In this document: one piece after another, positions 7,464-59,687 of the stretch
How the letters are laid out: each line of letters begins with the position of its first letter
Position numbering within the stretch: the first letter of the stretch is position 1
Source of the DNA: Rhodanobacteraceae bacterium
GTDB lineage: Bacteria; Pseudomonadota; Gammaproteobacteria; Xanthomonadales; SZUA-5
Assembly (NCBI GenBank): GCA_031409855.1
Contig: JANNYA010000226.1
Coordinates: 5,192-69,191, forward strand
Direction: 5' to 3'
Length of the DNA stretch: 64,000 nt
Position numbers and translations under genes: made by a program
Notes under the pieces: generated by a model
What the model was told of the DNA's origin: nothing
The model's input: only the letters and a program-made list of their open reading frames with translations
The model's database searches: none

Positions 7464-7482
7464 AGGTTTTCGCGATGTGGAT

Positions 7483-8814: not shown

Positions 8815-8861
8815 TTCGCCCGAAAGTTGCTGTTAGTCATGACAAGAAAGGAATTTTTATT

Positions 8862-15214: not shown

Positions 15215-15340
15215 GCGCGCGCGCTGTATACTTATTCATCTATCGTCGGACGATGCCGCCCATTCATGACGATTCACAAAACTTCGGGCCTGCTATTAAA
15301 CCTGCGAGTGGGTTAAAGTGAGGAAAGGGAAATTAATTGG

Positions 15341-19357: not shown

Positions 19358-19462
19358 GGTCTAAGCTTTCCAAGTAGTTTGTTTGCAATCGCAAACAAAT
19401 GGATGAAAGACTTATTCGAACATTTGAAGTATTTTTTGGTGAAGTTTTTTAGGAGTGCGACA

Positions 19463-21451: not shown

Positions 21452-21477
21452 TCAGCCGTTAGCCCGTAGGACTAAGT

Positions 21478-21525
21478 AGTTCTGGTGCCCCGATTAGCCC
21501 CGACGGCATCAGAACTAGGTTTTAA
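21478..21525 (+). terminator. Candidate rho-independent terminator after the caspase gene
   Basis: A 12-bp stem, AGTTCTGGTGCC (21478-21489) with GGCATCAGAACT (21505-21516), contains one G-U pair and has a 15-nt loop. It is followed by AGGTTTTAAAT. The loop is large and the U-tract is short, so confidence is low. Confidence 0.3.
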
Positions 21526-21695
21526 ATCCCGCCCGGCCGCCCTGGAATCGTTTGGCATTAATTGTGATCGCCTAGGCCAGCGTCTGCCTTGCTGCACTGA
21601 GTGCTACTTTGGGGTGCTACACTTGATCGTCTTAATCTTGTGAATTATCTTGCCAAGCGTGCTTTTAAATTGCTCAAACCAACTCGCGCCAGCCT

Positions 21696-24359: not shown

Positions 24360-24433
24360 ACAGACACAATGCGAAACACGCGCTGTATTCACTCAATAAC
24401 CTGTATTCACGTCGCAACCTGATCGAGAAGCCC

Positions 24434-41624: not shown

Positions 41625-44531
41625 CTACTCAAAGCCGTTCTTTAGCAGTGCGTCACGGAAATAAGCTGGCCCGCCGCGAAATAGAATGCCACTGGTGCCA
41701 GAGCGATAGCTTCCTAACTGCCCGGCGTTGATGGTCAAACGCCAACGTTCGCTATCTAGGCGCTGTGCACCAGCAAACGTGTACCAATCAAGCGTGCTGT
41801 CATTGCCAGGGGTCGTCGGGCCGTAGTTGCGCCAAGTCCAATCTGCGGGATTGGTGAAAAAGCCATCATGAAAGCGCACCACGACATCGGTACGGGCGCA
41901 TCCTGGCAGCTCAAAACTGATGATCCCGCGATCAGAGGTGTCGTAGTTTTCGCCCAGCGGGCCGATGTCTTCTGGATAAATACGCGAATCAATGCCGTAT
42001 ACATCAACAAACTGATCGCAGCTGGCACCGCCGCGCAGCAACACATTTTCGCCGGTGGTCGAGGTGTGATTGGAACGACCGAGCGCATTTTCCGTGGCGC
42101 GCGCGGGTGCATCCGCCGACAAACCCTGGGTGCGAATCAGAAAGCCGGTGACGAATCGCTGCGTGCTGTCCAAAATGCCGTCACTGTTGCTATCGCCCGC
42201 ATTTGGGCCGGCGTTTTCCACCGTGTCCAGCGAGCCATCATTGTCCGTGTCGGGCAGTTGTTCAAACTCGTACACACCGGCGTTGGTGCCGGCACGAATG
42301 ACCGCTCCAGGCCCATCTTGCAGGGCAAACACCGCATCTGCTGGCAATCCGGTACTGATCGAACGCCAAATACCGCCGCCATTGGTGGTGCGAAAGACAC
42401 CACCGGGGTTGGAATAGGTGCCGGTGCCTGCAGCAACTAAAGTGTCGGGAAGCGAACTATCCACCGCAAGCGAAGTGATTGAGGCGCCCAACAGACCATT
42501 GCTGACATTAGTCCAGTTCGCACCGGCGTCCGTGCTTTTATAAACGCCGTTGAGGGGTGAGCCATCAATAATACCGGTACCGGTTGCGGCATAAATAGTG
42601 TTCGAGTTCGCCATGACCAAGGCGTAAACATTCACGGTGCTTCCGGCAAATGGGCCGCTCGTAAAGGTGGGTAAGCCGTTACTCGAATGCGTCCAATTTG
42701 TGCCACGGTTGCTGCTTTTGAAGACGCCGTTCAAATGCACGGTAGGTGTCCCCGTGCCGGAGCCGGAAAGATTGGTGGCCAGATACAGCGTTTGCGTCGC
42801 GAATACATGGGTCGTCAAAACTTTTCCCTGCAGCCTGGCATTGCTGGCAGCCGGGGATTGCGGCAAGCCAACATTCGCCAGGGCGAAGCGCGCCCCTGCA
42901 TCCGTCGATTTGTAGACGATCAGCGCATTGCCCGCAGTGACGCCGCCGCCGTTTCCCGTGTTGACGAGATACACCGTTTCCAAAGTGTTGCCAGTAGCGC
43001 ACGCCCCAATGATTGGCGGTGCAGCGCAGGACCTTGGGTCTAATTTGACATCGCTGACGATGCCCATTGGTGACACTGAGCCGACCATCGCTGGCAGGCC
43101 GCTGTCCAAAATACTCCAGCTAGATCCGCCATTCACGGATTTGTAGACGCCTTGGTTACCCGTCATCAGTCGCGATTCGGAAAAACCGACGGCGTAAAGA
43201 GTCTGGCCAGTCAGCGGGGTGGTAAAATCCACGGCAATCGCACGTATCAAACCAGCGCGGACGCTGCTTAAGTTGAGCTCACTCCAGCTTGAGCCAGCGT
43301 TGGTCGATTTGAAAACACCGTGGCTTTGCGCGGAACTGTCTGATTGCGCAGCGTAGAGCGTGGTGGACGTGGGGCTAGCGCTTGCGATTGCATAAACGCC
43401 CACCGAATTAAAGCCGGCGTTGATCGGCGTGAATGAAACGCCATTGTTGGTTGATTTAAACAAACCCGAAGCCTGCGAGGCCGAATACAGCACGTTGCTG
43501 CCGGGGTAGCCATTGTCACCGCTGATATCGGACATTTGCGGCTGTGTATTGGTGGGGCCCAACACCGAGGTAAAAGTAACGCCTGAATTGCTGGAGCGAT
43601 CCACGACGCTGACAAAACCATCGGTTGGATTATCGGTTTGCAATTGCAGAATACTGGTCGAGCTGACTGGGGAGATCCAGTTCACCGCGACTAGATTGCT
43701 GGTCAGCCAATTGGCACCAAAATCATTGCTGAAAAAACCGAGCGTTCCACCGCTTGCACGCAGGCTTGCGTAAAGTTTGCCCGCAGGGCTTGCCGAGATA
43801 GGCGCGAACTGCAGCGAAAAGACAGCAGACGCGGTACTGGGCGCGGTAAAGCTTGGACTAAAGTTCAGGCCATTGTTGCTGCTGCGATAAAACTGCACCG
43901 GCGCGGGCGCGGAACTGATGAGCGCCATATCGTTCGCTAGCCACGCCACTTTGGAAACCGTTGCGGTGCCCGGATAGCCACTGAATGCTGTGGGGAAGCT
44001 AAACGTGGAGCCGCCGTTTCGGCTAATCGCTAAACTCGCATTGCCGGTCGTGCTGGACAAAATCGCAACACCCACGACACCGGTGCTTTGCACGGTGACG
44101 GCGATATCCCGCACCGATGTGGCACCCGATGGCAAAGTGAAACGCGTGCGAGCCCAGCGATCGCCGCGGTTGGAACTGACAAACACTTGATTGATTGGAT
44201 CAGGGCTGCTGCGCCTAATGTTTAATGCAAGCACATCGCCGTTGTTTGGTGCGAGCGTAAAAAAGCCAGTCCAGCGAACCCCAGCAGGCAAACCAGCCTC
44301 AATGCGTTTCCAACTTAGGCCTGCGTTGTCCGAGCGAAACATGCCGCTTTGGCCCAAGGCATAAACCACATTGTTATTGCTCGGGTGCACCAAAATTTGC
44401 GCGGAAACGCCGCCGAAAGGACCGTTTCCTGTCCAAACGCCAGCGCCAGCATTGGCCCGCTCGACGGGAAAAATCAGCAACAGTGCCAAAACTAACGAAA
44501 CCAGATAGGCGCGAAACATGGTGAACTCCAA
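41625..44531 (-). CDS. Secreted BNR/Asp-box (sortilin-Vps10 / Ycf48-like) multi-propeller repeat protein with a TSP3-like Ca-binding segment and an unassigned C-terminal domain
   Basis: Signal peptide MFRAYLVSLVLALLLIFPVERANA. There are at least 8 Asp-box-type repeats, for example MFRSDNAGLSWKRIEAGLP, GVFKSTNAGSSWSELN, GVYKSVNGGSSWSILDSGLP, GVFKSSNRGTNWTHSSNGLP, GVYKSTDAGANWTNVSNGL and GVFRTTNGGGIWRSISTGLP. These are followed by DTDNDGSLDTVENAGPNAGDSNSDGILD. Confidence 0.75.
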   Translation of the reverse strand: MEFTMFRAYLVSLVLALLLIFPVERANAGAGVWTGNGPFGGVSAQILVHPSNNNVVYALGQSGMFRSDNAGLSWKRIEAGLPAGVRWTGFFTLAPNNGDVLALNIRRSSPDPINQVFVSSNRGDRWARTRFTLPSGATSVRDIAVTVQSTGVVGVAILSSTTGNASLAISRNGGSTFSFPTAFSGYPGTATVSKVAWLANDMALISSAPAPVQFYRSSNNGLNFSPSFTAPSTASAVFSLQFAPISASPAGKLYASLRASGGTLGFFSNDFGANWLTSNLVAVNWISPVSSTSILQLQTDNPTDGFVSVVDRSSNSGVTFTSVLGPTNTQPQMSDISGDNGYPGSNVLYSASQASGLFKSTNNGVSFTPINAGFNSVGVYAIASASPTSTTLYAAQSDSSAQSHGVFKSTNAGSSWSELNLSSVRAGLIRAIAVDFTTPLTGQTLYAVGFSESRLMTGNQGVYKSVNGGSSWSILDSGLPAMVGSVSPMGIVSDVKLDPRSCAAPPIIGACATGNTLETVYLVNTGNGGGVTAGNALIVYKSTDAGARFALANVGLPQSPAASNARLQGKVLTTHVFATQTLYLATNLSGSGTGTPTVHLNGVFKSSNRGTNWTHSSNGLPTFTSGPFAGSTVNVYALVMANSNTIYAATGTGIIDGSPLNGVYKSTDAGANWTNVSNGLLGASITSLAVDSSLPDTLVAAGTGTYSNPGGVFRTTNGGGIWRSISTGLPADAVFALQDGPGAVIRAGTNAGVYEFEQLPDTDNDGSLDTVENAGPNAGDSNSDGILDSTQRFVTGFLIRTQGLSADAPARATENALGRSNHTSTTGENVLLRGGASCDQFVDVYGIDSRIYPEDIGPLGENYDTSDRGIISFELPGCARTDVVVRFHDGFFTNPADWTWRNYGPTTPGNDSTLDWYTFAGAQRLDSERWRLTINAGQLGSYRSGTSGILFRGGPAYFRDALLKNGFE

Positions 44532-44650
44532 TTTTCAGCCGATTCTGCGAAGCCTAAACCTGCTCGCACAACTAAAGCTAAGGACAATTGCGCAAGTGTA
44601 GAGCACCGCTTGGTTCCGCTATACCTGAAAACTGGGGTCATTTAGGCGCG

Positions 44651-47600
44651 CTAGCGCGGTGCGGTTTGCCGTAAACGTTGCTGCAGCTCCGTTAGCAGTT
44701 CCCGCGCACGGGCGAGATCTTTTGCGGGCTCAAGCAATGTCTGCGCCTGTGCAAGCAATGCGCGTTTTTGCGCCGCATCACTTGCCAGATCAGCGGCAAG
44801 CATACGCAGCGCTGCGCGTTCCGTGCGCAAGCGCAAATCGCGCGCATCGGCGGTGGCAATCACACTTTCGCCAAATTCCAGCCAACGTTGGCTTTCGGCT
44901 CGATCATTTAACCTTAAATTGACTTCTGCCAAGCGCGCCGCAGCAGCAGCAAGCGAGGGATGGCGCTCGCCGACGCGCGTTTGGGCAAATGCCAGCGCTT
45001 GCGCCAGGGTGGTACGTGCCGCCGCTAGCTCCGTGTCGCTGTGCGCGTTGAGCAGCGCCAGCCGCCCTAGCCCAAGTAACGCGCCCGATTGCTGTGGGCT
45101 GTCGACGCCAAACATGGCCTTTTGTGCTGCCCAAGCCGATTGATAAAGCCGCTCGGCACGCGGCAAATCGCGTTCCAGCATTGCACACGCAGCGCGATTT
45201 GTCGCCAACGAGGCAAACAAAGGATGCGGTTGGGTGGCATCGAGCAGCTTGCGCAAAATGACTTCGGCGGCGTCATAGTGCGTGCGCGCGGCGCTAAATT
45301 GCCCTAGATCGCGCTCAACGTTGCCAAGATTCATCTGGGCGATGGCGAGTTCGGTGTGCAGCGGACCAAGCAGCTTTTGTCGCTTCTCTAATACCGCTAA
45401 AAAATGCAGGCGCGCGTCTTTGGCACGCCCCATTTGTAGCAGCGCAAAACCCAAGTTATTGTGTGCGGTAACAATATCGACTTCGCTGGCGCCGTTTTGC
45501 CGCAGCGCCAGAGTTTGCTCAAGTAATGGTGCGGCTTCGGCGTAGCGATTTTGGTCGTTATAAATGCTGGCAATAATGTTCATGGTTACCGCCCGTGCAA
45601 GCGGCGCCGCACGATTTTCTGCCTGCATCGCACGCACGCGTTCCAACACCGCAAGCGCTTCCTCAGGGCGCGCTAAATCGGCCAATATCCGCCCGCGCTC
45701 CAGCCCAAGTTCGCTGACTAGCTCCGCTTGAGTGCGATCCTGCTGCAAAATGCCGAGCGCTTTTTGTGCCTGATCCAGTGCGGCAAGTGAACGCTCAAGC
45801 TTACCCAGTGAGCGCAGGCTTTGGCTCATCTGCAACAGCAGCTTCGCTTGAACTGCAGGCGTTTCTGAAAGCAGCGCGGCTTTGTCAATGCCTAGCTCTA
45901 AAACTTCCTTCACCGTCGGGTCGCGGCCTTTGGCTTGGTTTGGATCTGCGGTGGCAAATAGGCTGCGCCAAAATTCGCTCAGCGCATTCGCGCTGCGCGC
46001 TTCGACATTGGCCCGATCCGTTTGCACCTGCAGCGCTTTTCCGCGCTCGTTCAAGCGCGCGGTTTGCCACACAGCAACCGCAAGAATCAATGACAGCAAG
46101 GCGGCAATCCAGCGCAAACGGCGCTTGCTGCGGGAATCCGCATCGGCACGCTCAAGCGCGGCGCGAGCGATCTTGCGCTCCTGCTCGGCCAAGGCTTGGG
46201 CTTGCATTAGTTCGCGCTCATTTCGCTCGCGCGCCATTTCTGCAGCAGCCTGCTCGTGCGCAAAGCTTGCGTCCAAAAATTGTGTCTCAGGCTCGGTCAA
46301 ACGTACCAAGCCACGCTCCCGTACCGGCAGATACTGTGCCAGCCGCGCACTGCTCGCTAAAAATCCAGCCGCGTCTTTGCCCTCAGCAGGTGCTTCTTGC
46401 CACTGCTTGGTCGCCTCGGCTAGCTGGCGTTGAAGGCGCAAATCCGCACGTGAGCCGGCCAGCCAATCTTGCAGCAGCGGCCAACTGCGCAGCAGCGCCT
46501 CGTGCGCTACTTCTACAGTCGCTAGCCTTTCGCCCTGGAATTCATTGGCGATCAGCGCACTGGCCTGATCGCGATCATGGCTCAGCAAACGCGCGTCGGA
46601 GTAAGCATTGATCGCTTTCTGTAGCGGCGTGGGGTCGGTGAACAGGGCATTGAGTTCATGCAAAAAAGCGCGTCTGCGGGTGTCTTCACGGCCTTCGCCA
46701 AGCGTGGTCAAACGCAGAAAAAGCTGTTGCGTGGCCAACTGCGCCGGTGCATCTAAAGCTTCAAACGTCGATTGCGCACGATTTGCCAGCGCGCCGCGAA
46801 TGCCGCCCATTTGGCGAAACGCGCTGAGCGTCAGCTCGAACCCAGCTCGGCGGCGAAAAAGCTCCGCGAGCGAGTACTGCAGCATCGGCAAAGCGCTCGC
46901 TTGCCCGCCCATGTCGGCCAAAATTGCCGCGACTAACCCTGGCTCAAAAACTAAGCCTGCACGTTTGGCGGGTCCAACGATCGCGCGCTCCAGCTCCTCC
47001 ATCGTCATCGCCGGAATCATTTCGGTACGCGCGCGCAACAACTCGGCTAAGTCCACATGCTGGAGCGGGCGATCAAGAAAATCTGCGCGCAGGGTAAACA
47101 CCGCGCGCAGCCTAGAATACGGCTCCAGCAGCGCGTTACAAAGCTGGGCAATAAAAAGTTCACGTTCACTGGTGTCTGTGCACAGCGTGAAAAGCTCTTC
47201 AAATTGATCAATCACCAACAGCAGCTCAGTTCCCGGTGCCAGGCTGCGATCTATCGCGCGGGAAAAACCGGTGCGTTCTTGCATCAAGGCATCAAGCCCA
47301 TCGGGCGCGATCGAGGCCACCCGCAGCAGGGCCGCCTGCAGCGCCTGCAAAGGCTGTGCGCCGGGCATGAAGGTGCTAATCAACCACCGATCCGCACCTT
47401 TGATCTGACCCGCACGCAGTGCCGGGATTAAGCCCGCGCGAACCACCGATGACTTTCCGCTGCCCGAGGCGCCGACGACAAAAAGCGCACGCGAAAGCCC
47501 CTGGGCGCGCGCCTCGACACTTTCGCGCAGGCGATCCAACAAGCACTCAATCATCGCTTCGCGGCCGAAAAATTGCCGCGCATTGCTTTCATCGAAGGCG

Positions 47601-48934: not shown

Positions 48935-48980
48935 TGCGCGAGCTTAGCCCATGCGCATTACCCTGAACACCACGGGCAAC

Positions 48981-51900: not shown

Positions 51901-54900
51901 GCCGTGGTTAGCCAAATTCTGGACACGCCGTTCAACGCCGGAATCCCGGGCAATGCGGGTACATTCAAGTTGCTGCCTTCATTCGGCAAACCCCAGCTTT
52001 GCAGCGTGCTCAACACCACCGGTGTCGCGCTAAAGTCAAAGCCCGCAAGTGTCGGGAAGTTCACGGTTTCCCAGCCCGCCGTTGGGTAACCCGCAAAACC
52101 GCCAAAGGTCGTGGCGCGTTGACTAGCTGAGCTGAGCACACTGCCAACTTTGACTAGCACGCCCGTGCCAGGAACATTAGGTGCAAGGCCGCGCATCGCC
52201 ACATCATTCGGTAAGCGATAGCTGCCCGGCAAAGCCGCCAACCAATGCACCGACATCGTGCCACCCGCACCCGTACAGCCGGCGCAACCTTGCGGCTCGA
52301 CTTGCGAGACATCGAAACTGCTGGCGTTGATATTGCTCAAGCGCACGGCTTTAGGATCGGCGTCGGTGTTATCCGGCTGCACAATCACAATTGGCGTGGC
52401 GCTAAAAGGCTGCGGGAAAAACACGCGCGTGGCGGCGTTTGCACCGGCACCGGTGGCGGGCAAAGTAATTGCGCCGACCGCCAATTTACGGCTCACCGGT
52501 GGCGTGCTGGTGCGTGCGATGAAATTGCCGATGGCGTACACCAAATCGGTGGCCTCACCCCCCATGTTAATGGTGGCGACTGTCGTCATGCCAAGTGTTT
52601 CCAGCACGGTCATGGTGCCATTGTTATTGCCGACGTAAACGCGACTACCGTTCGGGTGTATATCGACCCCTAGTGCCTTGCCGCCAGTGCTGCCGGTGGC
52701 AAGCACGCTTAAGCTCGCGGCGTCGATTTGCGACACGGACAACCCGTTGAAATTGCTGGCATAAATTCGCGTGCCATCGCTACTCACATTGACCGCAAGC
52801 GGTGTGTTGCCGATGCTGGCGCTGCCAACAATGGTATCGGTGGCGGTATTGAGCGCGGTCAAGCGCCCGGTGGCCTGACCATTGACGAAATACACACGGC
52901 TGCCATCTGGACTGATCGCCAAAGCATGACTGGTTGTTGCCACGTTCACTTGCGTGACCACGTTGCCTGGCAAGCTAACCACAGAAACATTCGTGGTGTT
53001 TGCGCTGCCGACATAGAGCTTGCTGCCATCGGGCGTGACGGCTAAACCCGTTGGTGCCGCGGCCACGCCAAACGTTGCCAGCACAGTATTGCTAGCGGTA
53101 TCAATCACCGACACTGTGCTGGCATTGCGATTGCTGACATACAGCCGCGTGCTGTTCGCCGATACCACGCCGCTCCAAGGCCCGGCACCCACGGCAATCG
53201 AAGTAATCAGGGTTTTCGTGGCGGTATTAATCACCTTCACGCTATTGCTTGCCTGATCAATGGCATAAGCGCGCAGGCCATTGGGCGCTACCGCCGCACC
53301 GATACCGGCACCACCGCTAATCGAATGGGTAATGCTGTTGGTGCCCAAATCCAGCACCGCCATTTGTCCGGTGTTATTGCGCGGCACATACGCAAAGGGG
53401 CCAACCAGCGTTTGCCCGCCCGGCGTGACGCTGTTGGAGGCTTGCGATGCGACACTATCGCCAACCGAATTGCGCGCGATCACAGTGCAACTCACCGGGA
53501 CGCCATTCGCCAGCCCTGTCACGGTGACCGGTGCTGTGTTGCTAAAGATGCTGGATGCGCCGCAGGTCACGGTATAGCCAATAATCGCGGCACCGCCGTT
53601 GTCGCTTGGTGCAATGAAACTCAAACGCACTTCGCCATTGCCAGCGGTGGCGGTGCCAATGTTTGGCGCACGCGGCACGATCGGTAAAACCGTGTGGATC
53701 ACCGCAGGCGAAACTGACGCACCGTGGCGTAAATCACCGCTGAAAGTCGCGGTTAAAGTTTTTGCCCCGACCGTCGTTGGCGTCAACAAGCATTGCCCAA
53801 GCCCGGTACCGTTCGTCATTGTACCTTCGCAGAAATCGGTGCCATCGCTAATGCGCATGCTGCCGGTGGTTGGTGCATTGCCACTGCTGGGGAGAACTTC
53901 GGCCTGAACTAAATACGCTTGGTCACGCGGCGAGGGGTTCGGTGCGTGGGTGATGATCGTGTTGGTGGTGGCAATCGGCGCGCTCAATGTGTATCGGTTC
54001 AAAAACACATCGCTCAGCGCGTCATTATTAGCGGCAATTAAATTGCTGCTATCGCTGCTAAACACGAGTTCACCGGTATCAGAAATGGCACGCGCGCTCA
54101 TTGTGGACAGGGCATTCGCTTGCGTTCCCAATTCGGTCATCGAGCCGCGCGCAATGGTGCCGGTCACCTGATCTTTCACGAACGCATCCGCGAGCCCATT
54201 GCTGTCGCCGCTGACCAAGTTGGTCATGGCGCAAACAAAGCCTAGGTTGCGCCCGTTGCTGCTGATTGAAGGCGCGCTGCAATCGCCGCCCAGCCCTTCG
54301 GCGCCGCCTGCATCGGTGCTGACGCGGGTGGTGGTATTGAGCGTTAAATCACGGACAAAAATATCGGTCACGCCGTTGCTGTCGCCAGCCACCAAATTGC
54401 TGGCGGCTGAGCTAAACGCGACAAAGCGGCCATCGTGGCTAAGTGCGGGGCTATCGCTTGCTGCGTTTGCCTGCGCCCCGAGCGTTGAGATACTGACGCG
54501 CACAAGTGTGCCGTCGCTTAGGGTTTTTACATAGATATCGCGCACGCCGTTGCTATCGCTGGCGATCAAGTTGGTCGATTCAGAAACGAACGCCACGCGG
54601 CTGGCGTCATCGCTGATTTGCGCGCTCAGGTTATTGCCATCGCCCAATCCGCCAGCAGCGTTGGTGCTGATGATTGTGGTGGCGTTGGTGCTGCGGTTTT
54701 TCAGGAACACATCTTCTCTCAGATTGTTGTCACCCGCGACCAAAGTGCTATCGGCGCTGTGGAAAATGACTAGATTGCCATCGCTGCTGATCGAGGTGCC
54801 TGCGCGCAACGCCGTACTGCTGATCTGTGTGCCCGCGCTGCTGGAGCTGACTAGATCAATCGTGCCAGTCACGCGCTGCTTGACGAACACATCGAATGCG

Positions 54901-57900
54901 CCGTTGCCATCGCTGGCCACCAAATTGCTGGCGGTACTGCGAAAGACCACCGACAGGCCATCGCCGCTAACGGTCGGGAAATCGCTAGCGGCATTGGCCG
55001 CCACCGCGCTCGCGCTTTGACTGATGCGGATGTTGCTGCCATCGTTTCGGTCGGTCAGGAAAACATCGCTGGACAGATTGGTATCGCCATTGATGAGCGT
55101 GCTGGACGCTGACGAATAACTAACAAAGCGGCCATCGCGGCTAATGCTGGCATCCATACTTGCGCCCTCGCTGCGTGCGCCAGGATTGGCGGCACTGGCA
55201 CGCACGCTGGCAACGCTCAAGCGATCCCGCACAAATATATCCACCTGCGCATTGCTGTCATTTGCCACCAAATCAGTCGCCGCAGACTGATAGCTAATGA
55301 ATCTTCCATCGGCGCTGATTGCGGGGAATTCGCTCAGTCCACTCAAGGTTTGCGTGCCATTCGCCAACACATTGATGCGTGTGGTCGCATTGGTTTGCCG
55401 ATCTTTGAGAAAGATATCGCTTAAAACGTTGGTATCACCTGGGACCAGATTATTTGCACTGCTGTAGAAAGCAATATAGCGCGCATCGCTGCTCATGGAT
55501 GCCAGCTGCGAGCCTGCCACACCATACACACCGGTGCTATTAGTGCTCACCATCGCAATCGCGCCGGTATTCATATCTTTCAAAAAAACGTCGTAGTTGT
55601 TGTTGACGTCATTGACTACCAAGCGCCGATTCAGCGAACTAAACGCGACATAGCGGCCATCGGCACTGATGGCGGGGCGGCCAAAACTCGGATCTGTGGG
55701 GTTTGCCCCGCCAACACCAGCGGCGTCGACGCTAACAATTTGGATCGCGCGGGTGAGTCGATCTTTGCGAAAAATGTCCACGGTATCGTTGCTGTCGCCA
55801 ACGTAAAAATTGAACGCCTGCGACTGGAACGCGACATAGCGGCCATCGGCACTCAGCACCGGATTGAAACTGCGAAAGTCGCCTAAAACGTCCGCGCTGT
55901 TGCTGCTGACGATATCGAGCGTGTTGCCCAGCAAGTCACGCACATAAATGTCATTGTGGATGCTGGTGTCACTGGGTAAAAGTTGCCCACCGGTTTGAAA
56001 CGCGACAAAGCGGCCGTCGGCGCTTAAACTTGGTGCCAACTGGTCAAAACCTGCACCCGTATTTGGCGTGCTGTCTTGGTTGCCGTTGGACTTCAGCGTG
56101 GCGCGCACGATGCTGCCGTCGCTTAAGTCTTTAACAAAAACATCGACCACATTATTGGTATCGCCAGACACCAAATTGCTAGCTAACGAACTAAATGCAA
56201 CAAAACGGCCATTCGCGCTTATCACAGGCTCAGCGCTGGCACCGTCGCTTTGCAGGCCGCCAGCGCTGGTACTAATTCGACGCACTAGACCGCTGCGCTG
56301 ATCGCGAATGAAAATATCCCGCAGCGCATTGCTATCATTAAGCACCAAGTCGCTGGCGCTGCTCGCAAAGACTACAAAGCGGCCATCCCCACTTAAGCTG
56401 AGCGCGTTGTTCACCGATGCACCGTTGCTTTCGCTGTAGCCCAATCGCGGGTTTGAAATAAGCACTGGGTAGCTTTCCGGCAAAACCGTTTGCACTACGG
56501 GTATTGAGGTACGCGGCGCATAATTTGCATCGCCCGGCCAGTTTGCGATCAAATTGCGCGCACCTGACGTGCTGGCGCTCCAGAAACATTGATTCGCAGG
56601 CAGCACGATCAGGCATTGATCGACGCCATCGCTGACCGTGATCGTGCCGGTTGGCGCTGGCGTGCTTAGGAAACTTGACACGTCCAAATCCACCGTAATG
56701 TGCACGCCTTGGCGCAAGCGGCTGGTAGCAGGCATATTGCGGACAATGGCAAAGTTCGCGACCGCTTGCGTGGCGGACACCTGACTGGCTGCCCAAATGC
56801 CGCTGGCGCTGTAGCTGGCAGTCAAGCTGCGCGTGCCAGCACGCAATGGCTGCAGCGTGCAGCTGCCTACTTCAGCTGCAGTCCCAACTAAAGCGACGCT
56901 ACAGCGCGCGGTTAATGGATCACTGGCTGGGCCGTCAAGAACCTGCACCGCGCCGCTTGGGAAATCGCCCAAATCCGGCGTTTCCCGCACGTTGAGTTGC
57001 ACCACAACCGGTGCCAGCGGCAGCGAAGGATTCGGCAAATTGCTGCTGATGCTGGTGGTTGTAGCGCGGCCGGCATTGACCAGATGACTGGTGCTCGCCA
57101 TTGCCGCCGGATGCGCGCCATCGCCGGAATAACACAGCTGCAGCGTCTTGTTGCCGACGCTGTTAAAGCTGATGGCGCAACTATTGCCGGGCAAAGTCAC
57201 CGTGCACTGATGCGCCGGATCAATCGGCGCACTGGCGCAATCGACAGCCTCTTTTACTGTGACGGTGCCAGTGGCAGAGGCGGCTGGATTTCCCGCTGGC
57301 GGCGCTAAAGTCCAACTCAAGGTGATCGGTGCACCATTGACCGACGGATCAGGTGTGTCATTGATGGCGCTGAACTCCACCGCGCCAGTGCTGATGTGGG
57401 TTTCGCTGTCGCTACCGCCATCAAAACCACCGTAGCCCAAGTAATCTGCCACCAGAGTTTTATTGCCGGTGCGCAACGGCGTCAAAATACATTCGCCGAT
57501 TTCGCCCGGTGTACCCAAAAGTGTCATCGTACAAAAAGCTGTTGTTGCCTCGTGGCGCGGGCCATCGCGCACTTCTACTAAACCTTTTGGCAAGGCCGCA
57601 ATCGGGTTGCCCGCGGTTTTGACCACCTGCGCGCGCACCGTGATCGGCGCTAGCAAACTCGAAGAATCGGGCAAGTCCGAAATGATGGTGGTGACGGTGT
57701 TTGGGCCGGGGCTCATGTACCAATTGACCGCCGGGTTAAAACGTATTCGCGCTTCAAACAGCGCCCAGTGATTTGGCGTTGCGGTGGATAACCTAAAGCT
57801 GCCCAAACTCGTCGTTGCAAATCCAGTGGAGTTATCAAAGCGCACCGCGATGGAGCAGGCAACGCCCTGTGGATTGACCACTCGGCCACGATATACCAAT

Positions 57901-58715
57901 AGCGTGCGGTAATCATCCGCTGTGCCCTGCACGCCATCTAGCCCTGCCCGGGTGAAGCGCAAAGTGGCCAAATCATCATGTTGCAGATGCCGTTGCGCCT
58001 CATCGGCGCCTGCGCCCTGCTGCATAACCGCCTCAGCATTCGCAAAGCCCAGCGCTGCCAGCACTTGCTGGCCGGCATTGGCGGCGTACAGGTGGCCTGC
58101 GGGCAAAAAGCTCAAGCTGCGCGCATACGTCGACTCATCAATAATGCTTGGCAGCAGGCCAGGATTATTGACACCCTTGCCATACCAGTGCAGGTTTTGA
58201 TCGTCACCGCGAACATCGTCACTGGAGCCGTGTAGGCCATCCACACCTGCGCCTTGGTCAAACACATTGTTCGGGCCATTCGCGCTTTTCGTGCCGTCGT
58301 TCAACGGGCTTGGCAAACCCGATTCACTGGCGTGATTCGGATGCGCCAAGCCTTGCCCGTGCAGCATTTCGTGCAGCAGCACCGATTCGAAATCATACTG
58401 GCCGCTTGGCACGTCGGTTTGCGCGCTGAGGGCTTTGGTTTGCTCAGCCAATGATCGAAAGCGATTAATGGTGGCAATCGCTTTGAGCAATGCTGGCTCT
58501 GCTGACTCAGCCAAAGCCTGATTCGCGCCTATATCCAAACACACGCGAATCGAGCTTAGCTCGCCACCGTTGCCGTCAAAGTTGTGCGGATGCGTGCGAA
58601 TATCGGGAAAGCTTTCGTCAGCCACCACATAAGCACCCGGGCTGCAAATACTCGGCAGCGCTAAGGCGACGCTCAGCAGGCTCAGTTTACAGAACTGACT
58701 GATTACGCGGCTCAT
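48981..58715 (-). CDS. Giant (3244 aa) secreted multidomain protein: N-terminal metzincin-like Zn-protease, Ig-like modules, 14 PD40/TolB-like blades, FN3, YVTN beta-propeller, lectin-like modules, C-terminal peptidase C25 (gingipain-like) domain
   Basis: A signal peptide is present. The Zn motif is HEMLHGQGLAH (58341-58373). There are five Ig-like modules, each with a conserved Cys pair. Fourteen ~57-aa repeats of the type SADGRFVAFSSLASNLVSGDTNNVVDVFVKDL span about 53990-56410. An FN3 domain (GEVRLSFIAPSDNGGAAIIGYTVTC) follows. YVTN repeats (LYVSNRNASTVSVIDTASNTVLATFGVAAAPTGLAVTPDGSKLYV) span about 52470-53500. The C25-like domain (about 48981-50030) has VDYLIVTHPLF, VLLVGGDSYDYDD, GRIPART, the catalytic His in INYLGHSSP (about 49395-49397) and Cys in SQWGCWNSYF (49293-49295). 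Confidence 0.85.
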   Translation of the reverse strand: MSRVISQFCKLSLLSVALALPSICSPGAYVVADESFPDIRTHPHNFDGNGGELSSIRVCLDIGANQALAESAEPALLKAIATINRFRSLAEQTKALSAQTDVPSGQYDFESVLLHEMLHGQGLAHPNHASESGLPSPLNDGTKSANGPNNVFDQGAGVDGLHGSSDDVRGDDQNLHWYGKGVNNPGLLPSIIDESTYARSLSFLPAGHLYAANAGQQVLAALGFANAEAVMQQGAGADEAQRHLQHDDLATLRFTRAGLDGVQGTADDYRTLLVYRGRVVNPQGVACSIAVRFDNSTGFATTSLGSFRLSTATPNHWALFEARIRFNPAVNWYMSPGPNTVTTIISDLPDSSSLLAPITVRAQVVKTAGNPIAALPKGLVEVRDGPRHEATTAFCTMTLLGTPGEIGECILTPLRTGNKTLVADYLGYGGFDGGSDSETHISTGAVEFSAINDTPDPSVNGAPITLSWTLAPPAGNPAASATGTVTVKEAVDCASAPIDPAHQCTVTLPGNSCAISFNSVGNKTLQLCYSGDGAHPAAMASTSHLVNAGRATTTSISSNLPNPSLPLAPVVVQLNVRETPDLGDFPSGAVQVLDGPASDPLTARCSVALVGTAAEVGSCTLQPLRAGTRSLTASYSASGIWAASQVSATQAVANFAIVRNMPATSRLRQGVHITVDLDVSSFLSTPAPTGTITVSDGVDQCLIVLPANQCFWSASTSGARNLIANWPGDANYAPRTSIPVVQTVLPESYPVLISNPRLGYSESNGASVNNALSLSGDGRFVVFASSASDLVLNDSNALRDIFIRDQRSGLVRRISTSAGGLQSDGASAEPVISANGRFVAFSSLASNLVSGDTNNVVDVFVKDLSDGSIVRATLKSNGNQDSTPNTGAGFDQLAPSLSADGRFVAFQTGGQLLPSDTSIHNDIYVRDLLGNTLDIVSSNSADVLGDFRSFNPVLSADGRYVAFQSQAFNFYVGDSNDTVDIFRKDRLTRAIQIVSVDAAGVGGANPTDPSFGRPAISADGRYVAFSSLNRRLVVNDVNNNYDVFLKDMNTGAIAMVSTNSTGVYGVAGSQLASMSSDARYIAFYSSANNLVPGDTNVLSDIFLKDRQTNATTRINVLANGTQTLSGLSEFPAISADGRFISYQSAATDLVANDSNAQVDIFVRDRLSVASVRASAANPGARSEGASMDASISRDGRFVSYSSASSTLINGDTNLSSDVFLTDRNDGSNIRISQSASAVAANAASDFPTVSGDGLSVVFRSTASNLVASDGNGAFDVFVKQRVTGTIDLVSSSSAGTQISSTALRAGTSISSDGNLVIFHSADSTLVAGDNNLREDVFLKNRSTNATTIISTNAAGGLGDGNNLSAQISDDASRVAFVSESTNLIASDSNGVRDIYVKTLSDGTLVRVSISTLGAQANAASDSPALSHDGRFVAFSSAASNLVAGDSNGVTDIFVRDLTLNTTTRVSTDAGGAEGLGGDCSAPSISSNGRNLGFVCAMTNLVSGDSNGLADAFVKDQVTGTIARGSMTELGTQANALSTMSARAISDTGELVFSSDSSNLIAANNDALSDVFLNRYTLSAPIATTNTIITHAPNPSPRDQAYLVQAEVLPSSGNAPTTGSMRISDGTDFCEGTMTNGTGLGQCLLTPTTVGAKTLTATFSGDLRHGASVSPAVIHTVLPIVPRAPNIGTATAGNGEVRLSFIAPSDNGGAAIIGYTVTCGASSIFSNTAPVTVTGLANGVPVSCTVIARNSVGDSVASQASNSVTPGGQTLVGPFAYVPRNNTGQMAVLDLGTNSITHSISGGAGIGAAVAPNGLRAYAIDQASNSVKVINTATKTLITSIAVGAGPWSGVVSANSTRLYVSNRNASTVSVIDTASNTVLATFGVAAAPTGLAVTPDGSKLYVGSANTTNVSVVSLPGNVVTQVNVATTSHALAISPDGSRVYFVNGQATGRLTALNTATDTIVGSASIGNTPLAVNVSSDGTRIYASNFNGLSVSQIDAASLSVLATGSTGGKALGVDIHPNGSRVYVGNNNGTMTVLETLGMTTVATINMGGEATDLVYAIGNFIARTSTPPVSRKLAVGAITLPATGAGANAATRVFFPQPFSATPIVIVQPDNTDADPKAVRLSNINASSFDVSQVEPQGCAGCTGAGGTMSVHWLAALPGSYRLPNDVAMRGLAPNVPGTGVLVKVGSVLSSASQRATTFGGFAGYPTAGWETVNFPTLAGFDFSATPVVLSTLQSWGLPNEGSNLNVPALPGIPALNGVSRIWLTTAIRNASSSGFEAALESSSSDDTGGTIPGLLNPETIGYIAIESGVSTQLAVSGGSLVGLATSASISSANVVNGSCSIIDLAFPAGTATVAANLRGFAGLMSRGEDDGGWLRRCALGNASGTNVSMTVRVDEDADLSSDRSHTTLETVGTAIFGGEFATTPVSLAFVNTTRSGTQLNVQFGSATEAGHLGYRLWGRADSTKDWRALHEDLIVNRTGDGMSAKSYQRTVEAAGITEIRLEDIDLTGVSRFHPEIKPDANGAASVGAPALDQPLNWAAIRASNAATPVRSARGTAATSVLASVRKTGIQRVSFAQMSAAGFASGVNTGEIAVIENSVPVPRFVDCLSATFGPGCSVEWLASTRPSLYGSERVYEIKHDAAAAQNVGSGAVVDGAVLARTVSAEIKQAPNREYTFSAPGNDPWFDQRLVATTAPVALTRSFSLPARTVGAVNLKVNLWGGLDYPGNTPDHSVALLLNGETIAERRFDGLSLQTITLSLSAAQLQANNTLTLRVLGDTGYAADVVLLDGFSVSYTRSTSMSDGELAFGSFSANSAGDALMRNSFESVSGFALTGINTASTIWSQVDGTIKRDQVAANAALDLRVSAAYVSDLAHLQTPALAPAAAPQIDFAPVDYLIVTHPLFEAELAPIIALQQSRGYSVKVMRTDAIYAASSAHQRSPQAIREAIAQVNPKFVLLVGGDSYDYDDNLGAGSQSYLPTFYRVASLIVRFAASDALFADANSDGIPERALGRIPARTVEELRRAISSIVQRGDTPAAKFFASAGGSNASEHFAVHSRALLSYLRQNQTVEFGLSDEIGINDARISAKAALAGGSDWINYLGHSSPNRWAAQNLLDTTQLASLQRSGLPAIVSQWGCWNSYFVMPNLDTMSHALMLRSNQLAAAVIGSTSLAEDASHLALGTRFFDLIEDGRIDDRGGVAINTLGESLQAAKADLATNAPEHMESNYSITLFGDPAMRVR

Positions 58716-59260
58716 GGCGCACTCACTTTCACAGCGTCAGCCCGCGTTTCTAAGGCCAGCAGCGCCTGCACCATCACACTCATCGCCTGCAAATCGGCGT
58801 TATCGGGCTGAACTTCGGCACCGGCGAGCACGCCGAATGCACTCTGTTTGATCGCATCCGCGCCAACGCCCGCTTCCAACACATACAAATCGGCGTCCTG
58901 CACCTGGAAAACCTCAACCCGCGCCACACTGCTGCGCGCATTTGCCGATGCCATTAACGCCGCGCGATCAATATGCCGCACCCGCTCCGGCGTGATGACT
59001 TGCCGCAACCCCGTCAGTTCGGTAGCCGTTAGCGTGACGCGAAAATCCCCGGCCGCGCGATAAAAGCTGGGCCGATGCAGCGCCACGCAGCCATTATCGT
59101 AAACCTGCAGCGTCAGCGTGCGATCCGCAACGCTGACTTGCGCTGCGGTAACACTCAACGCCAAAGTCGGCGCACCGATGGGCGTGCACGCGGCGAACGC
59201 CGACTTATACAAACCGAGCAAAATAATTGCGGATAGACAGCGGAACAGTGTTTGCGACAT
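58712..59260 (-). CDS. Hypothetical small secreted protein / probable lipoprotein; first gene of the giant-protein operon
   Basis: The signal peptide with Cys is MSQTLFRCLSAIILLGLYKSAFAAC. There is an ATGA overlap with the giant gene start (58712-58715). I recognised no family. Confidence 0.6.
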   Translation of the reverse strand: MSQTLFRCLSAIILLGLYKSAFAACTPIGAPTLALSVTAAQVSVADRTLTLQVYDNGCVALHRPSFYRAAGDFRVTLTATELTGLRQVITPERVRHIDRAALMASANARSSVARVEVFQVQDADLYVLEAGVGADAIKQSAFGVLAGAEVQPDNADLQAMSVMVQALLALETRADAVKVSAP

Positions 59261-59435: not shown

Positions 59436-59687
59436 TCAATTCCCCAAGACTCCACGGGCGCGGCCGACTGCGGCGGTTCTGCTGAATGGTTGTAACAAGC
59501 CAGTTTCAGTCAACAGTTTTAGCTAGCGATGCAGAGAGCCAACAGAAACATCGGTCAAACGGGCGATCGCGCGCAGATAAAAATTTTCGTCAGGACGCAG
59601 CAGCAGCAATGCGAGTATCTTGCGGCGGTAGGCACCGAACAAAATCTCAATGAGCTGTGGGACTTCGGCAGTTTCAATTGATCTCAT
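59436..59687 (-). pseudogene. Small winged-helix (ArsR/MarR-like) transcriptional regulator interrupted by an in-frame TAG
   Basis: Hand translation from ATG 59687-59685 gives MRSIETAEVPQLIEILFGAYRRKILALLLLRPDENFYLRAIARLTDVSVGSLHR*LKLLTETGLLQPFSRTAAVGRARGVLGN*. The TAG (59523-59525) sits where wHTH proteins of this type normally have E or Q (..RELKRL.E.GLL..). The homology-like pattern continues in the same frame after the stop. Confidence 0.5.

Follow-up and report, generated by a model that had tools for sequence, protein, structure and literature searches.

PknS of Xanthomonas citri is a kinase that is connected via a transmembrane (TM) segment to a periplasmic TPR domain and phosphorylates the ECF43 sigma factor EcfK (PMC13147305). 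The same architecture, namely an N-terminal cytoplasmic Hanks kinase, a single TM helix and a C-terminal TPR region, which is predicted to be periplasmic, is found in a STAND protein encoded on the stretch of 64,000 nucleotides analysed here (the window). The STAND protein originates from the same bacterial order as PknS and would likewise have a transcription factor as output; however, no ECF sigma gene adjoins its gene, and an XRE-type HTH is fused to the protein instead. In addition, an nSTAND1 NTPase of around 410 amino acids is located between the kinase and the TM helix, and outside of the kinase, the similarity to PknS is a weak TPR match (31-32% over around 178 amino acids). STAND NTPases of the nSTAND1 clade (PF20703) were described by Kaur, Iyer, Burroughs and Aravind (2021, PMC8195603); in the passages on this clade, nSTAND1 is named for STAND-FGS proteins, and Ser/Thr/Tyr kinase domains are listed among their N-terminal effectors. 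The window protein shows a strong match to PF20703, has intact Walker A and B motifs and follows the tripartite logic of these passages, with a kinase as N-terminal "effector" and superstructure-forming repeats at the C-terminus. It differs from the clade in that its repeats lie beyond the TM helix and are predicted to be extracytoplasmic, that it lacks EAD or death-like adaptor domains, and that its gene lies in a housekeeping context, evolves under strong purifying selection and has the gene of a secreted BNR propeller as its partner. The passages found by keyword search in two nSTAND1 papers contained no mention of a STAND-BNR pairing.

Peptidases of the C25 family are known from gingipains and PorU of Bacteroidota. 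The giant protein encoded upstream of the STAND protein shares the C25 catalytic domain and the conserved His/Cys dyad with them, and its pre-C25 and C25 regions align to the PorU profile NF033707 (E=3e-29) and weakly to the PorU structure 6za2. However, it scores 101 bits, compared to a PorU equivalog cut-off of 420 bits, its host is a gammaproteobacterium of a Xanthomonadales/Lysobacterales-like lineage, a C-terminal sorting domain for T9SS was not detected, and the C25 domain is located at the very end of the giant, which additionally has a domain with a zincin motif. Operons of serralysin-type metzincins encode a periplasmic inhibitor, as is the case for AprA/AprI and PrtA/Inh, and thus also combine a secreted HExxHxxGxxH zinc peptidase with a small partner that has a signal peptide. 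By analogy, a role as inhibitor would be logical for the 182-aa protein encoded next to the giant, for which neither sequence nor fold similarity to known inhibitors was detected. In contrast to the serralysin operons, the small gene comes first, and instead of the C-terminal signal for T1SS, the giant has a putative Sec signal. The fourth protein resembles propellers of the GH74/"BNR-repeat glycosyl hydrolase" and Sortilin-Vps10 families: it contains 13 Asp-box motifs and matches Sortilin-Vps10 of Pfam above the cut-off (E=4.7e-15) and PDB entry 3b7f ("glycosyl hydrolase, BNR repeat"; E=2e-8), but stays below the cut-off of the NCBIfam glycosylhydrolase model F510_1955 (79 vs 175 bits). To our knowledge, these families have not been associated with STAND receptor kinases in a conserved manner.

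The 17.6-kb block that contains these four genes probably comprises two independent modules of two genes each, which are juxtaposed only in this lineage. All four ORFs are located on the minus strand and are tightly packed and co-directional, in agreement with the preliminary description of the locus. Module A consists of the genes for the small secreted protein (58712-59260, 182 aa, recognised as ORF) and the giant (48981-58715, 3244 aa; Pfam, NCBIfam and orthologs), Module B of those for the STAND protein (44651-48934, 1427 aa; Pfam and NCBIfam) and the BNR protein. The ATGA overlap of the small and the giant gene (58712-58715, GCGCCATGAGCCGC) and the 46 nt between the giant stop and the STAND start were also borne out. 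This spacer (48935-48980) is the boundary between a highly diverged cassette and a conserved STAND-BNR-epmA block; no promoter-like or terminator-like site was called in it, so co-transcription of the giant and STAND genes is possible. A gap of 119 nt between the STAND and BNR genes had been reported, which is correct for an ORF starting at TTG (41625-44531, 968 aa). The preferred start is an in-frame ATG at 44519 (41625-44519, 964 aa), which has a GGAG Shine-Dalgarno sequence 7 nt upstream; the TTG at 44531 overlaps the same sequence. Since the BNR ortholog in L094, a close relative with the same chromosomal locus, was also called at 964 aa with a distance of 131 nt to the STAND gene, the true gap is probably 131 nt. 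Defence-type genes (GmrSD_N) are present elsewhere in the window and in L094.

The STAND protein contains, from the N- to the C-terminus, an XRE-type HTH (aa ~17-70, nt 48725-48886, minus strand like all following features; NCBIfam matches), a Hanks Ser/Thr kinase (aa 148-394, nt 47753-48493; Pfam Pkinase, E=2.7e-50), an nSTAND1 NTPase (aa 440-848, nt 46391-47617; Pfam, E=4.7e-114), a coiled-coil and a predicted single TM helix (aa ~940-958, nt 46061-46117), which corresponds to the only hydrophobic segment (aa 940-956), and the predicted periplasmic TPR region of around 460 amino acids (nt 44654-46039; TPR_12, TPR_10). The kinase motifs VAIK174, HRD267, DFG287 and SPE314 as well as Walker A (GASGSGKS488) and Walker B (LLLVIDQFEE571) are intact and invariant across 30 homologs. 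The HTH, the active-looking kinase and the STAND NTPase of the preliminary description were confirmed. Five K/R residues precede the TM segment in the window protein and three follow it; a TM segment is present in 103 of 120 homologs, with on average 4.2 K/R on the N-terminal and 1.6 on the C-terminal side. The conserved TM segment and the positive-inside bias support the predicted connection of the NTPase to extracytoplasmic TPRs, and a membrane-spanning topology is likely a family-wide property. There are thousands of HTH-kinase-nSTAND1-repeat proteins (4871 homologs of the STAND protein at E<1e-10), and the novelty of composition claimed in the preliminary description was overstated in its case. 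The locus is flanked by the housekeeping genes epmA, yraN, lpoA and rsmI, and omega is 0.10 for the STAND protein and 0.13 for the TPR sensor (window vs L094). In view of the strong purifying selection and this neighbourhood, the STAND protein resembles a receptor kinase more than a sensor of immunity. Its partner is predicted to be a secreted BNR/Sortilin-Vps10-type beta-propeller, which also carries a single thrombospondin-type-3-like motif for Ca binding (aa 757) and a C-terminal domain of around 200 amino acids; signal peptides at this locus were assigned by eye from n-h-c regions.

The giant starts with a signal peptide and a putative metzincin-like zinc-peptidase domain (aa 1-340, nt 57696-58715), followed by Big_3_5 Ig domains, PD40 propeller repeats, Big/fn3 domains, a YVTN/YncE-type propeller, a conserved "mid" region, a PorU-like pre-C25 region and the gingipain/PorU-type Peptidase_C25 domain (aa 2900-3244, nt 48984-50018), all on the minus strand; Ig-like, fn3 and propeller repeats account for around 2,200 of its 3,244 residues. 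The most conserved segments are the N-terminal domain (67-87% identity to orthologs, omega 0.08) and the C25 domain (77-83%, omega 0.07; both omega values window vs L094). C25 matches the Pfam model with E=3.6e-46 (aa 2900-3243, 158.5 bits vs a cut-off of 23), and HMMER aligned it to gingipain R (1cvr), with NYLGHSS opposite NYTGHGS and QWGCWN opposite DVACVN; the catalytic residues His3107 and Cys3141 are invariant in the ortholog alignment. The motif H115-E-M-L-H119-G-Q-G122-L-A-H125 (nt 58341-58373), which is of the HExxHxxGxxH type, is invariant in eight orthologs and also in 32 orthologs and paralogs. In 12 of 13 members, the N-terminal domain matched Peptidase_M10 below the threshold (best E=0.0012), neither a sequence nor a profile match was obtained in the PDB, and an AF2 model (pLDDT 50) gave no significant Foldseek match. 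Thus, the "dual protease" of the preliminary description stands for C25 with its intact His/Cys dyad, whereas the N-terminal protease is a weaker assignment, supported by an invariant motif and sub-threshold Peptidase_M10 matches. There are seven full-length orthologs with 60-67% identity; around 25 paralogs match only the N-terminal 54%, and in paralogs this half is kept and the C25 end is swapped for fn3 and DUF11-type repeats. The most likely function of the giant is that of a protease and binding platform, either in the envelope or outside of the cell.

The small protein had zero matches in Pfam, NCBIfam and PADLOC and is without family assignment, and with a pLDDT of 45, its AF2 model was too poor to be used. 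It has a putative signal peptide and two cysteines, C25 and C58, which are invariant in 19 homologs and three further sequences from the loci. It had been described as a lipoprotein, and the F-A-A-C site of the window protein indeed fits a loose lipobox; however, the lipobox is broken in L090, L092 and L096, deeper orthologs have a Pro at -1, and C58 is invariant as well. As the lipobox is not kept and the second Cys is, a secreted protein with a disulfide bond is no less likely than a lipoprotein. A homolog is encoded upstream of the giant in all eight ortholog contexts (34-60% identity), in seven of them directly upstream with a 4-nt overlap; in L096, a gene for a 795-aa protein lies in between. 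The small protein is likely a periplasmic chaperone or inhibitor.

The distribution of the four genes was compared in a small sample of seven STAND and eight giant contexts, mostly metagenome contigs. The small and giant genes are paired in 8/8 giant-ortholog contexts, and in five of six informative contexts, the STAND and BNR genes are linked, with two different orientations. The STAND relative is accompanied by an adjacent full-length BNR ortholog in tandem in L094, L002 and L001 and divergently in L097, and the identities of BNR/STAND proteins decrease in step (91/94, 59/61, 40/50 and 36/49%, respectively). Among the eight giant contexts, Modules A and B are adjacent only in the window and L094. 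No giant or small-protein sequence accompanies the STAND gene in L001, L002, L003, L004-6 and L097, and 80 kinase-nSTAND1 loci from the genome collection contained zero giant, small or BNR matches. Conversely, the giant occurs without STAND in L090, L091, L092/93, L095 and the contig of P0128; in L096, no STAND gene is located upstream of the giant, and the contig stops around 650 nt past it. In the metagenome-assembled genome GCA_031422315.1, a STAND homolog and a giant ortholog are found on different contigs. Among the contexts compared, the four-gene synteny is therefore present in one other genome, so the lack of synteny named in the preliminary description as speaking against a common system largely applies, and a conserved four-gene system is not upheld: STAND and BNR adjoin the giant in 2/8 contexts, which represent one shared locus.

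The two modules also have separate histories. Between the window and L094, the STAND and BNR proteins and those of the flanking genes are 89-97% identical, the giant 66% and the small protein 60%. The dS values are 0.30 for STAND, 0.43 for BNR, 0.35 for epmA and 0.38 for yraN, and with 1.46 and 1.19, respectively, those of the giant and small genes are three to five times higher than those of STAND and BNR. At the DNA level, identity is 0.93-0.95 from the 46-nt spacer into the STAND gene, 0.75-0.90 over the last 300 nt of the giant gene and 0.52-0.68, up to 0.73, over most of its central part, with a step from around 0.93 to around 0.65 at the giant stop codon. This break and the dS difference (1.2-1.5 vs 0.3-0.4) identify the giant and small genes as a cassette with a history of its own. 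Gene order and the 46-nt spacer are identical in both genomes despite very different giant alleles; the position of the cassette upstream of STAND has thus been maintained, which could reflect function.

In the favoured explanation, Module B would be a resident, vertically inherited transmembrane signalling device. We infer that the secreted BNR propeller and the periplasmic TPR domain form its extracytoplasmic sensing side. By analogy to other STAND proteins, a signal passing through the single TM helix would drive NTP-dependent switching or oligomerisation of nSTAND1, which would then activate the Hanks kinase. The output would be transcriptional, via the fused XRE-type HTH and/or phosphorylated targets, making Module B akin to a PknS/EcfK-type receptor kinase with an inserted STAND switch and a fused DNA-binding partner. 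Module A would be a translationally coupled, exchangeable cassette for a presumably Sec-exported mega-protein, in which Ig and propeller arrays lie between two conserved peptidase domains.

Other readings of the locus have to be weighed against this. The preliminary description related the STAND domain to NLR/Avs-type immunity; STAND, together with BNR, would then be a conflict or anti-phage system, whose repeats recognise an invader-derived molecule, leading to STAND oligomerisation, with the kinase as dormancy or abortive-infection effector. The definition of nSTAND1 within predicted counter-invader systems, with S/T/Y kinases among the N-terminal effectors, in the passages on this clade (PMC8195603), matches of the kinase domain to the PADLOC models PD-T4-6 and mad6, and the GmrSD_N genes of the window and L094 fit such a role. 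However, apart from C3a189, a weaker candidate-system kinase model that reaches aa 1119, the PADLOC matches lie essentially within the generic kinase domain (aa ~140-430). According to the predicted topology, the sensor repeats are located outside the cytoplasm, whereas Avs or bNACHT sense phage proteins in the cytoplasm. The housekeeping flanks, 94% identity to L094 with a dS like that of the neighbours, and the low omega values, with no sensor diversification seen, also disfavour immunity, and the fused HTH suggests a transcriptional rather than a lethal output; we consider this reading quite improbable. It is also unlikely that the giant is a surface adhesin or biofilm matrix protein with vestigial or solely self-processing "protease" domains and the small protein its outer-membrane lipoprotein anchor. 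The large share of repeats and the high allelic divergence are typical of adhesins and surface antigens, respectively, and the exchange of the C25 end in paralogs and the lipobox-like site of the window protein are in line with this proposal. Nevertheless, both peptidase signatures are invariant and lie in the most constrained parts of the giant, which makes vestigial domains improbable, deeper orthologs do not keep the lipobox, the second invariant Cys points to a disulfide, and Pfam and NCBIfam searches detected no anchoring domain in the giant (autotransporter barrel, T9SS CTD, LPXTG motif).

A single integrated four-gene system, in which the STAND kinase responds via TPR and BNR to a cue from the envelope or the outside and governs how the giant and small protein are expressed, processed or released, the whole being a surveillance/effector or surface-remodelling apparatus, seems doubtful. 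[quoted passage not shown] Against it stand the five contexts with STAND but no giant, at least five with the giant but no STAND, and the raised dS of the cassette in L094, the sole other genome with this arrangement, all of which favour two independent modules. Analogous pairs of an ECF sigma factor and a kinase-TM-TPR protein are found within around 5 kb of the giant in five of six other giant-ortholog contexts, including the contig of P0128, where only the sigma gene is visible before the record ends; the pairs are co-directional in L092/L093 and convergent in L091, and in L090 the distance to the giant is 4 kb. There is no kinase near the giant in L095, and ECF43/kinase pairs are abundant in Xanthomonadales (343 representatives, PMC13147305), so the adjacency could be due to chance. 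Nevertheless, these pairs hint at a possible functional connection, perhaps a regulatory one, between giants and TM kinases. The ECF and 884-aa kinase pairs beside the giants of L090 and L092 have the PknS architecture, including an N-terminal extension of around 83 amino acids.

The block on the minus strand comprises four ORFs, which encode a small protein of 182 amino acids (58712-59260), a giant protein of 3244 amino acids (48981-58715), the STAND protein of 1427 amino acids (44651-48934) and a BNR-type protein of 968 amino acids, as counted from the listed TTG start (41625-44531). All four are present exactly as the preliminary description stated, including the overlap between the TGA of the small gene and the ATG of the giant gene (GCGCCATGAGCCGC) and the spacer of 46 nt between the giant and STAND genes. 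The most likely start of the BNR gene is the ATG at 44519: a GGAG precedes it by 7 nt, and the TTG of the original listing (44531) lies inside this Shine-Dalgarno sequence; the product would then have 964 amino acids and the gap between the STAND and BNR genes would be 131 nt. The same length and gap are found in the gene call of the BNR ortholog in L094, a locus of a close relative with all four genes. The giant-STAND and STAND-BNR spacers contain no called promoter-like or terminator-like site, and co-transcription of the predicted four-gene block is therefore possible. The block is flanked by housekeeping genes, with epmA-like, yraN, lpoA and rsmI genes on one side and genes for an amidohydrolase and an M20 peptidase on the other.

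It had been proposed that the four genes form a single surveillance/effector or surface-remodelling system. The four ORFs and the identical order in L094 speak for this proposal, but the synteny test largely failed elsewhere, and the block is best interpreted as a pair of modules: the STAND and BNR genes would form a resident receptor-type signalling pair, and the small and giant genes a translationally coupled, exchangeable cassette. Seven full-length orthologs of the giant were found at 60-67% identity, and the NCBI annotation of one of them reads 'C25 family cysteine peptidase [Xanthomonadales bacterium]'; the literature was searched for Peptidase_C25 in Xanthomonadales with no relevant result. 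The names given to the giant's homologs are the sole basis for an order-level placement of the window as Xanthomonadales/Lysobacterales-like. A homolog of the small protein (34-60% identity) is encoded upstream of the giant in every ortholog context, and the two genes share the 4-nt overlap in seven of eight contexts, the window counted. Among the other giant-ortholog contexts, STAND and BNR genes are located downstream of the giant in L094 only, which also has the epmA-yraN-lpoA flank of the window and is therefore the orthologous locus of a close relative. In assembly GCA_031422315.1, a STAND homolog and a giant ortholog are found on different contigs. An ECF sigma/kinase pair lies within about 5 kb of the giant in five of the six other giant-ortholog contexts. 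The sigma gene and a gene for an 884-aa kinase are directly downstream of the giant and co-directional in L092 and L093, the pair is convergent with the giant in L091 and about 4 kb away in L090, and next to the giant ortholog P0128 the sigma gene alone is visible before the contig record ends. The ECF-paired kinases of L090 and L092 resemble the receptor kinase PknS, with a TM segment at about aa 380-400 and C-terminal TPRs, and no kinase was found near the giant ortholog in L095.

Two of these loci show further particularities. In L091 (19798-29774), the ECF sigma and kinase-TPR pair separates the giant ortholog from another, distinct C25 protein of 2065 amino acids with FG-GAP and C25 domains, which shares the 'mid' segment of the giant at 57% identity; a further kinase-TPR gene is present at the opposite end of the locus. 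In L096 (5287-18177), a gene for a 795-aa Ig-repeat protein (Big_3_5, He_PIG) is located between the small homolog and the giant and overlaps the called start of the latter, which might reflect an insertion, a frameshift or an artefact of assembly.

When the comparison is made from the STAND side, a different partner emerges. BNR orthologs are encoded directly downstream of the STAND gene on the same strand in L002 (STAND 61%, BNR 59% identity) and L001 (50% and 40%), and a full-length BNR ortholog is encoded directly upstream and divergently in L097 (49% and 36%). No BNR ortholog adjoins the STAND gene in L004-6 (STAND 46%), and the upstream side of L003 (STAND 49%) is uninformative for BNR because the contig ends there. 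The giant and small genes are absent from all of these loci (L001, L002, L003, L004-6 and L097). The STAND-BNR pairing is thus conserved over 36-91% identity and in two gene orientations, which suggests that the BNR propeller is a periplasmic co-sensor of the TPR domain; the keyword-checked passages of two nSTAND1 papers do not mention such a pairing. A metagenome scan with the BNR seed yielded three loci only, and in L087 a BNR homolog (37%) has no STAND gene within 10 kb. A profile search of contigs from species-representative genomes, seeded with the STAND alignment, gave mainly the Chloroflexota/Actinomycetota kinase-nSTAND1 branch among the matches listed, rather than the close TPR-type relatives, and these loci serve only as a negative control for whether giant, small and BNR genes are linked to such STAND genes. 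At least 80 further kinase-nSTAND1 loci of these genomes had no tblastn match to the BNR protein, the small protein or segments of the giant; the sole match in the 80 listed loci was a weak generic propeller. The M20 peptidase genes upstream of STAND in L001 and in the upstream flank of the window were also considered as shared synteny, which was rejected because tblastn with the M20 peptidase and amidohydrolase of the window matched no locus.

The two modules also differ in their divergence between the window and L094. Amino-acid identity is 94% for STAND, 91% for BNR, 97.5% for yraN, 92% for lpoA and 89% for epmA, and drops to 66% for the giant and 60% for the small protein. At the DNA level, the stretch that begins with lpoA and includes the 46-nt spacer is about 0.90-0.95 identical, and the final 300 nt of the giant gene are 0.75-0.90 identical; in the remainder of this gene the value is mostly 0.52-0.68, with a maximum of 0.84 in the N-terminal peptidase domain. 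Accelerated protein evolution and positive selection were rejected as the source of the giant's divergence, since dS itself (Nei-Gojobori) is three to five times higher, with 1.46 for the giant and 1.19 for the small gene versus 0.30 for STAND, 0.43 for BNR, 0.35 for epmA and 0.38 for yraN, and omega is below 0.3 in every segment, both peptidase domains of the giant being the most constrained (0.07-0.08). These rates point to anciently diverged cassette alleles in the window and L094, which would have been acquired by allelic replacement or transfer; gene order and spacer are the same in both despite the allele swap. The C25 giant cassette beside STAND, which is uncharacterised but has an NCBI annotation, thus evolves as an exchangeable unit.

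The regions upstream of the cassette are entirely different in L094 and the window, and the left flank of the cassette is therefore variable and rich in defence genes. In L094 (1-9357), this region encodes a GmrSD_N protein, an AAA ATPase, an HTH protein and another kinase-TPR protein. In the window, the 498-nt gap upstream of the small gene contains a 54-codon ORF (59523-59687, minus strand) that by eye resembles the N-terminal stub of a winged-helix/ArsR-type regulator (…YRRKILALLLLRPDENFYLRAIARLTDVSVGSLHR*) and may be a remnant at the variable left edge of the cassette.

The STAND protein is best read as a predicted PknS-like receptor kinase with a fused DNA-binding domain and an inserted nSTAND1 switch. 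It starts with an XRE-type HTH at aa 17-70 (NCBIfam support), which is followed by a Hanks-type Ser/Thr kinase domain (Pkinase, 171.7 bits versus a cut-off of 31.7, E=2.7e-50) with the motifs VAIK174-177, HRDLKPAN267-274, DFG287 and SPE314, all of which are invariant in 30 full-length homologs. The nSTAND1 domain (PF20703) spans aa 440-848 and covers positions 1-374 of the 379 in the profile (382.4 bits versus 27.1, E=4.7e-114); its Walker A (GASGSGKS at 488) and Walker B (LLLVIDQFEE at 571) motifs contain G491, S492, G493, K494, S495, D576, Q577, F578, E579 and E580, which are likewise invariant in these 30 homologs. The best hydrophobic 17-mer of the protein, aa 940-956, has nSTAND1 on one side and the Pfam TPR_12 and TPR_10 repeats on the other. 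The protein has 4871 homologs at E<1e-10, and among the best 120 of these, 103 have their top hydrophobic 17-aa window, with a value of at least 2.0, at residues 700-1000, Chloroflexota HTH-kinase-nSTAND1-WD40 proteins being among the 103. In the 15 residues flanking the segment, the homologs have on average 4.2 K/R before and 1.6 after it. The predicted topology, N-in/C-out with the repeat sensor outside the cytoplasm, would therefore be a trait of the whole family rather than a peculiarity of this locus. The Chloroflexota/Actinomycetota proteins of HTH-kinase-nSTAND1-WD40 type (P0037-P0120) have a strong single TM segment (hydropathy 2.4-2.9) between NTPase and WD40, and their WD40 propellers would therefore be extracytoplasmic too.

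Among characterised proteins, the closest mechanistic analogue is PknS of Xanthomonas citri, in which a TM helix joins a kinase to periplasmic TPRs and whose substrate is the ECF43 sigma factor EcfK (PMC13147305). The kinase-TM-periplasmic TPR architecture of PknS/EcfK-type systems is also predicted for the STAND protein; however, the latter has a fused DNA-binding domain and an inserted nSTAND1 switch, and its gene is adjoined by the giant and BNR genes rather than by an ECF43 sigma gene. Sigma70_ECF had no match among the scanned ORFs flanking STAND. ECF43/kinase pairs are very abundant in this order, with 343 Xanthomonadales representatives cited in PMC13147305. The name nSTAND1 comes from predicted conflict systems whose N-terminal effectors include S/T/Y kinases (PMC8195603); the HTH-kinase-nSTAND1-repeat architecture is therefore catalogued but experimentally uncharacterised. 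The STAND protein is a variant of this catalogued family with a previously unremarked BNR partner.

An immune role of the Avs/NLR type had also been suggested for the STAND protein. The nSTAND1 switch fits this reading, and PADLOC did return matches for the protein, but these are essentially confined to the kinase domain (PD-T4-6, mad6 and MkoA, aa ~140-430), the exception being a weaker match of the C3a189 candidate-system kinase model to aa 154-1119 (E=9.6e-46); the giant, small and BNR proteins had no PADLOC match. In Avs/bNACHT systems, a cytoplasmic sensor and a defence-island or variable context are expected, whereas the TPR domain of STAND is predicted outside the cytoplasm from its TM segment and positive-inside bias, and the gene is flanked by epmA, yraN, lpoA and rsmI. 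It is found at the same locus in L094 with a dS equal to that of its neighbours, and the omega of 0.10 for the whole gene and 0.13 for the TPR sensor gives no indication of diversifying selection. Its housekeeping neighbours, purifying selection of this strength and the predicted extracytoplasmic sensor thus argue against an immune role and in favour of a receptor kinase. Such a position of the repeat sensor bears on the reach of the NLR analogy: should the TM helix prove real across the family, the kinase-nSTAND1 proteins would include thousands of STANDs that sense outside the cytoplasm, a departure from the cytosolic NLR model.

The giant would be exported through Sec and combines several propellers and Ig domains with two conserved peptidase centres. 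It carries five Big_3_5 domains, PD40 repeats and a YncE/YVTN-type propeller (Pfam, NCBIfam). Of the two proteases previously assigned to it, the C-terminal one is well founded: Peptidase_C25 matches over the full-length profile (1-374; 158.5 bits versus 23, E=3.6e-46), and HMMER alignment to gingipain R places the catalytic H3107 (NYLGHSS) and C3141 (QWGCWN), which are invariant in eight orthologs. While the giant shares the catalytic His/Cys with gingipain/PorU-type C25 proteins, a T9SS sorting domain was not found: T9SS CTD models had no match, the C25 domain runs to the last residue, and the PorU equivalog scores 101 versus a cut-off of 420. The N-terminal protease is suggested by the extended zinc motif of metzincins, HEMLHGQGLAH (HExxHxxGxxH) at aa 115-125, whose H115, E116, H119, G122 and H125 show no variation among 32 orthologs and paralogs, but the family profile stays below threshold. 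Peptidase_M10 matches 12 of 13 members sub-threshold (best E=0.0012; 14.7 bits versus 24 for the giant of the window), next to isolated weak matches to Reprolysin, M66, M57 and M54. PDB searches with the N-terminal domain, both as a single sequence and as a 13-sequence profile, gave no meaningful match. Its AF2 model is too poor to interpret (mean pLDDT 49.9), and Foldseek with this poor model found nothing at E<1 in the PDB, ADAM10 and a snake-venom metalloproteinase appearing at E~5 only.

The small protein has no family assignment in Pfam, NCBIfam or PADLOC, and its AF2 model (pLDDT 45.3) is too poor to interpret. Its earlier label as a lipoprotein is doubtful: the putative lipobox Cys is invariant, but the site reads F-A-A-C in the window, A-A-P-C in L090 and L092 and A-E-P-C in L096, and the Pro at -1 in these deeper orthologs misfits a lipobox. 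A signal-peptidase-I site is compatible with all sequences, and a second cysteine, C58, is invariant too, which suggests a disulfide. In metzincin-inhibitor operons, a metzincin protease is co-encoded with its inhibitor, and by analogy the small protein may be a periplasmic inhibitor or chaperone for the giant. The BNR protein matches Sortilin-Vps10 (55.7 bits versus 33) and contains 13 Asp-box motifs (S-x-[DN]-x-G-x-x-[WFY]) spaced by about 50 amino acids.

The division into two modules avoids a false 'new system' call on a candidate flagged as a four-component immunity/effector system, and the conserved association between a STAND receptor kinase that spans the membrane and a secreted BNR propeller provides a testable lead. 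The giant dual-peptidase cassette is swapped as a unit at a fixed chromosomal site and recurs beside TM kinase regulators, which points to a regulated role in proteolysis or interactions outside the cell in Lysobacter-like environmental bacteria. The unchanged order and spacer in L094, together with the nearby PknS-like kinases, make a regulatory link between the giants and transmembrane kinase-TPR sensors possible, although ECF43/kinase pairs are so abundant in this order that their proximity to the giants may be coincidental. We regard as improbable the broader proposal that the secreted C25/zincin mega-proteases of Xanthomonadales-like bacteria are dedicated outputs or ligands of adjacent TM Ser/Thr-kinase-TPR sensors, which would be PknS/EcfK-type kinase-sigma pairs in most lineages and would have been replaced here by an NLR-like version of the HTH-kinase-nSTAND1-TM-TPR type with BNR. 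If true, the STAND 'receptor kinase' would sense outside the cytoplasm and control an exchangeable extracellular protease cassette, with the secreted BNR protein as co-receptor.

Several other genes in the window deserve mention. A second co-directional cluster (13187-26280, plus strand) encodes a 675-aa protein with no Pfam match, a 1338-aa DUF11 autotransporter, a 690-aa Sel1 and caspase (Peptidase_C14) protein, an 887-aa Pkinase and FGE-sulfatase protein, a 276-aa FHA protein and a 361-aa ORF. Its caspase, kinase-FGE and FHA set resembles the predicted conflict systems of PMC8195603, and the cluster may be a better conflict-system candidate than the flagged locus. The genes at 7426-10043 (plus strand), which encode an N6/N4 DNA methylase and a GmrSD_N restriction-type protein, look like a small acquired restriction/defence islet; the GC content is 0.457 at 8001-10000 versus about 0.55 elsewhere. 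Another propeller-type sensor protein, with 1084 amino acids, Reg_prop (two-component regulator propeller) and a GGDEF diguanylate cyclase domain, is encoded at 26308-29562 (minus strand).
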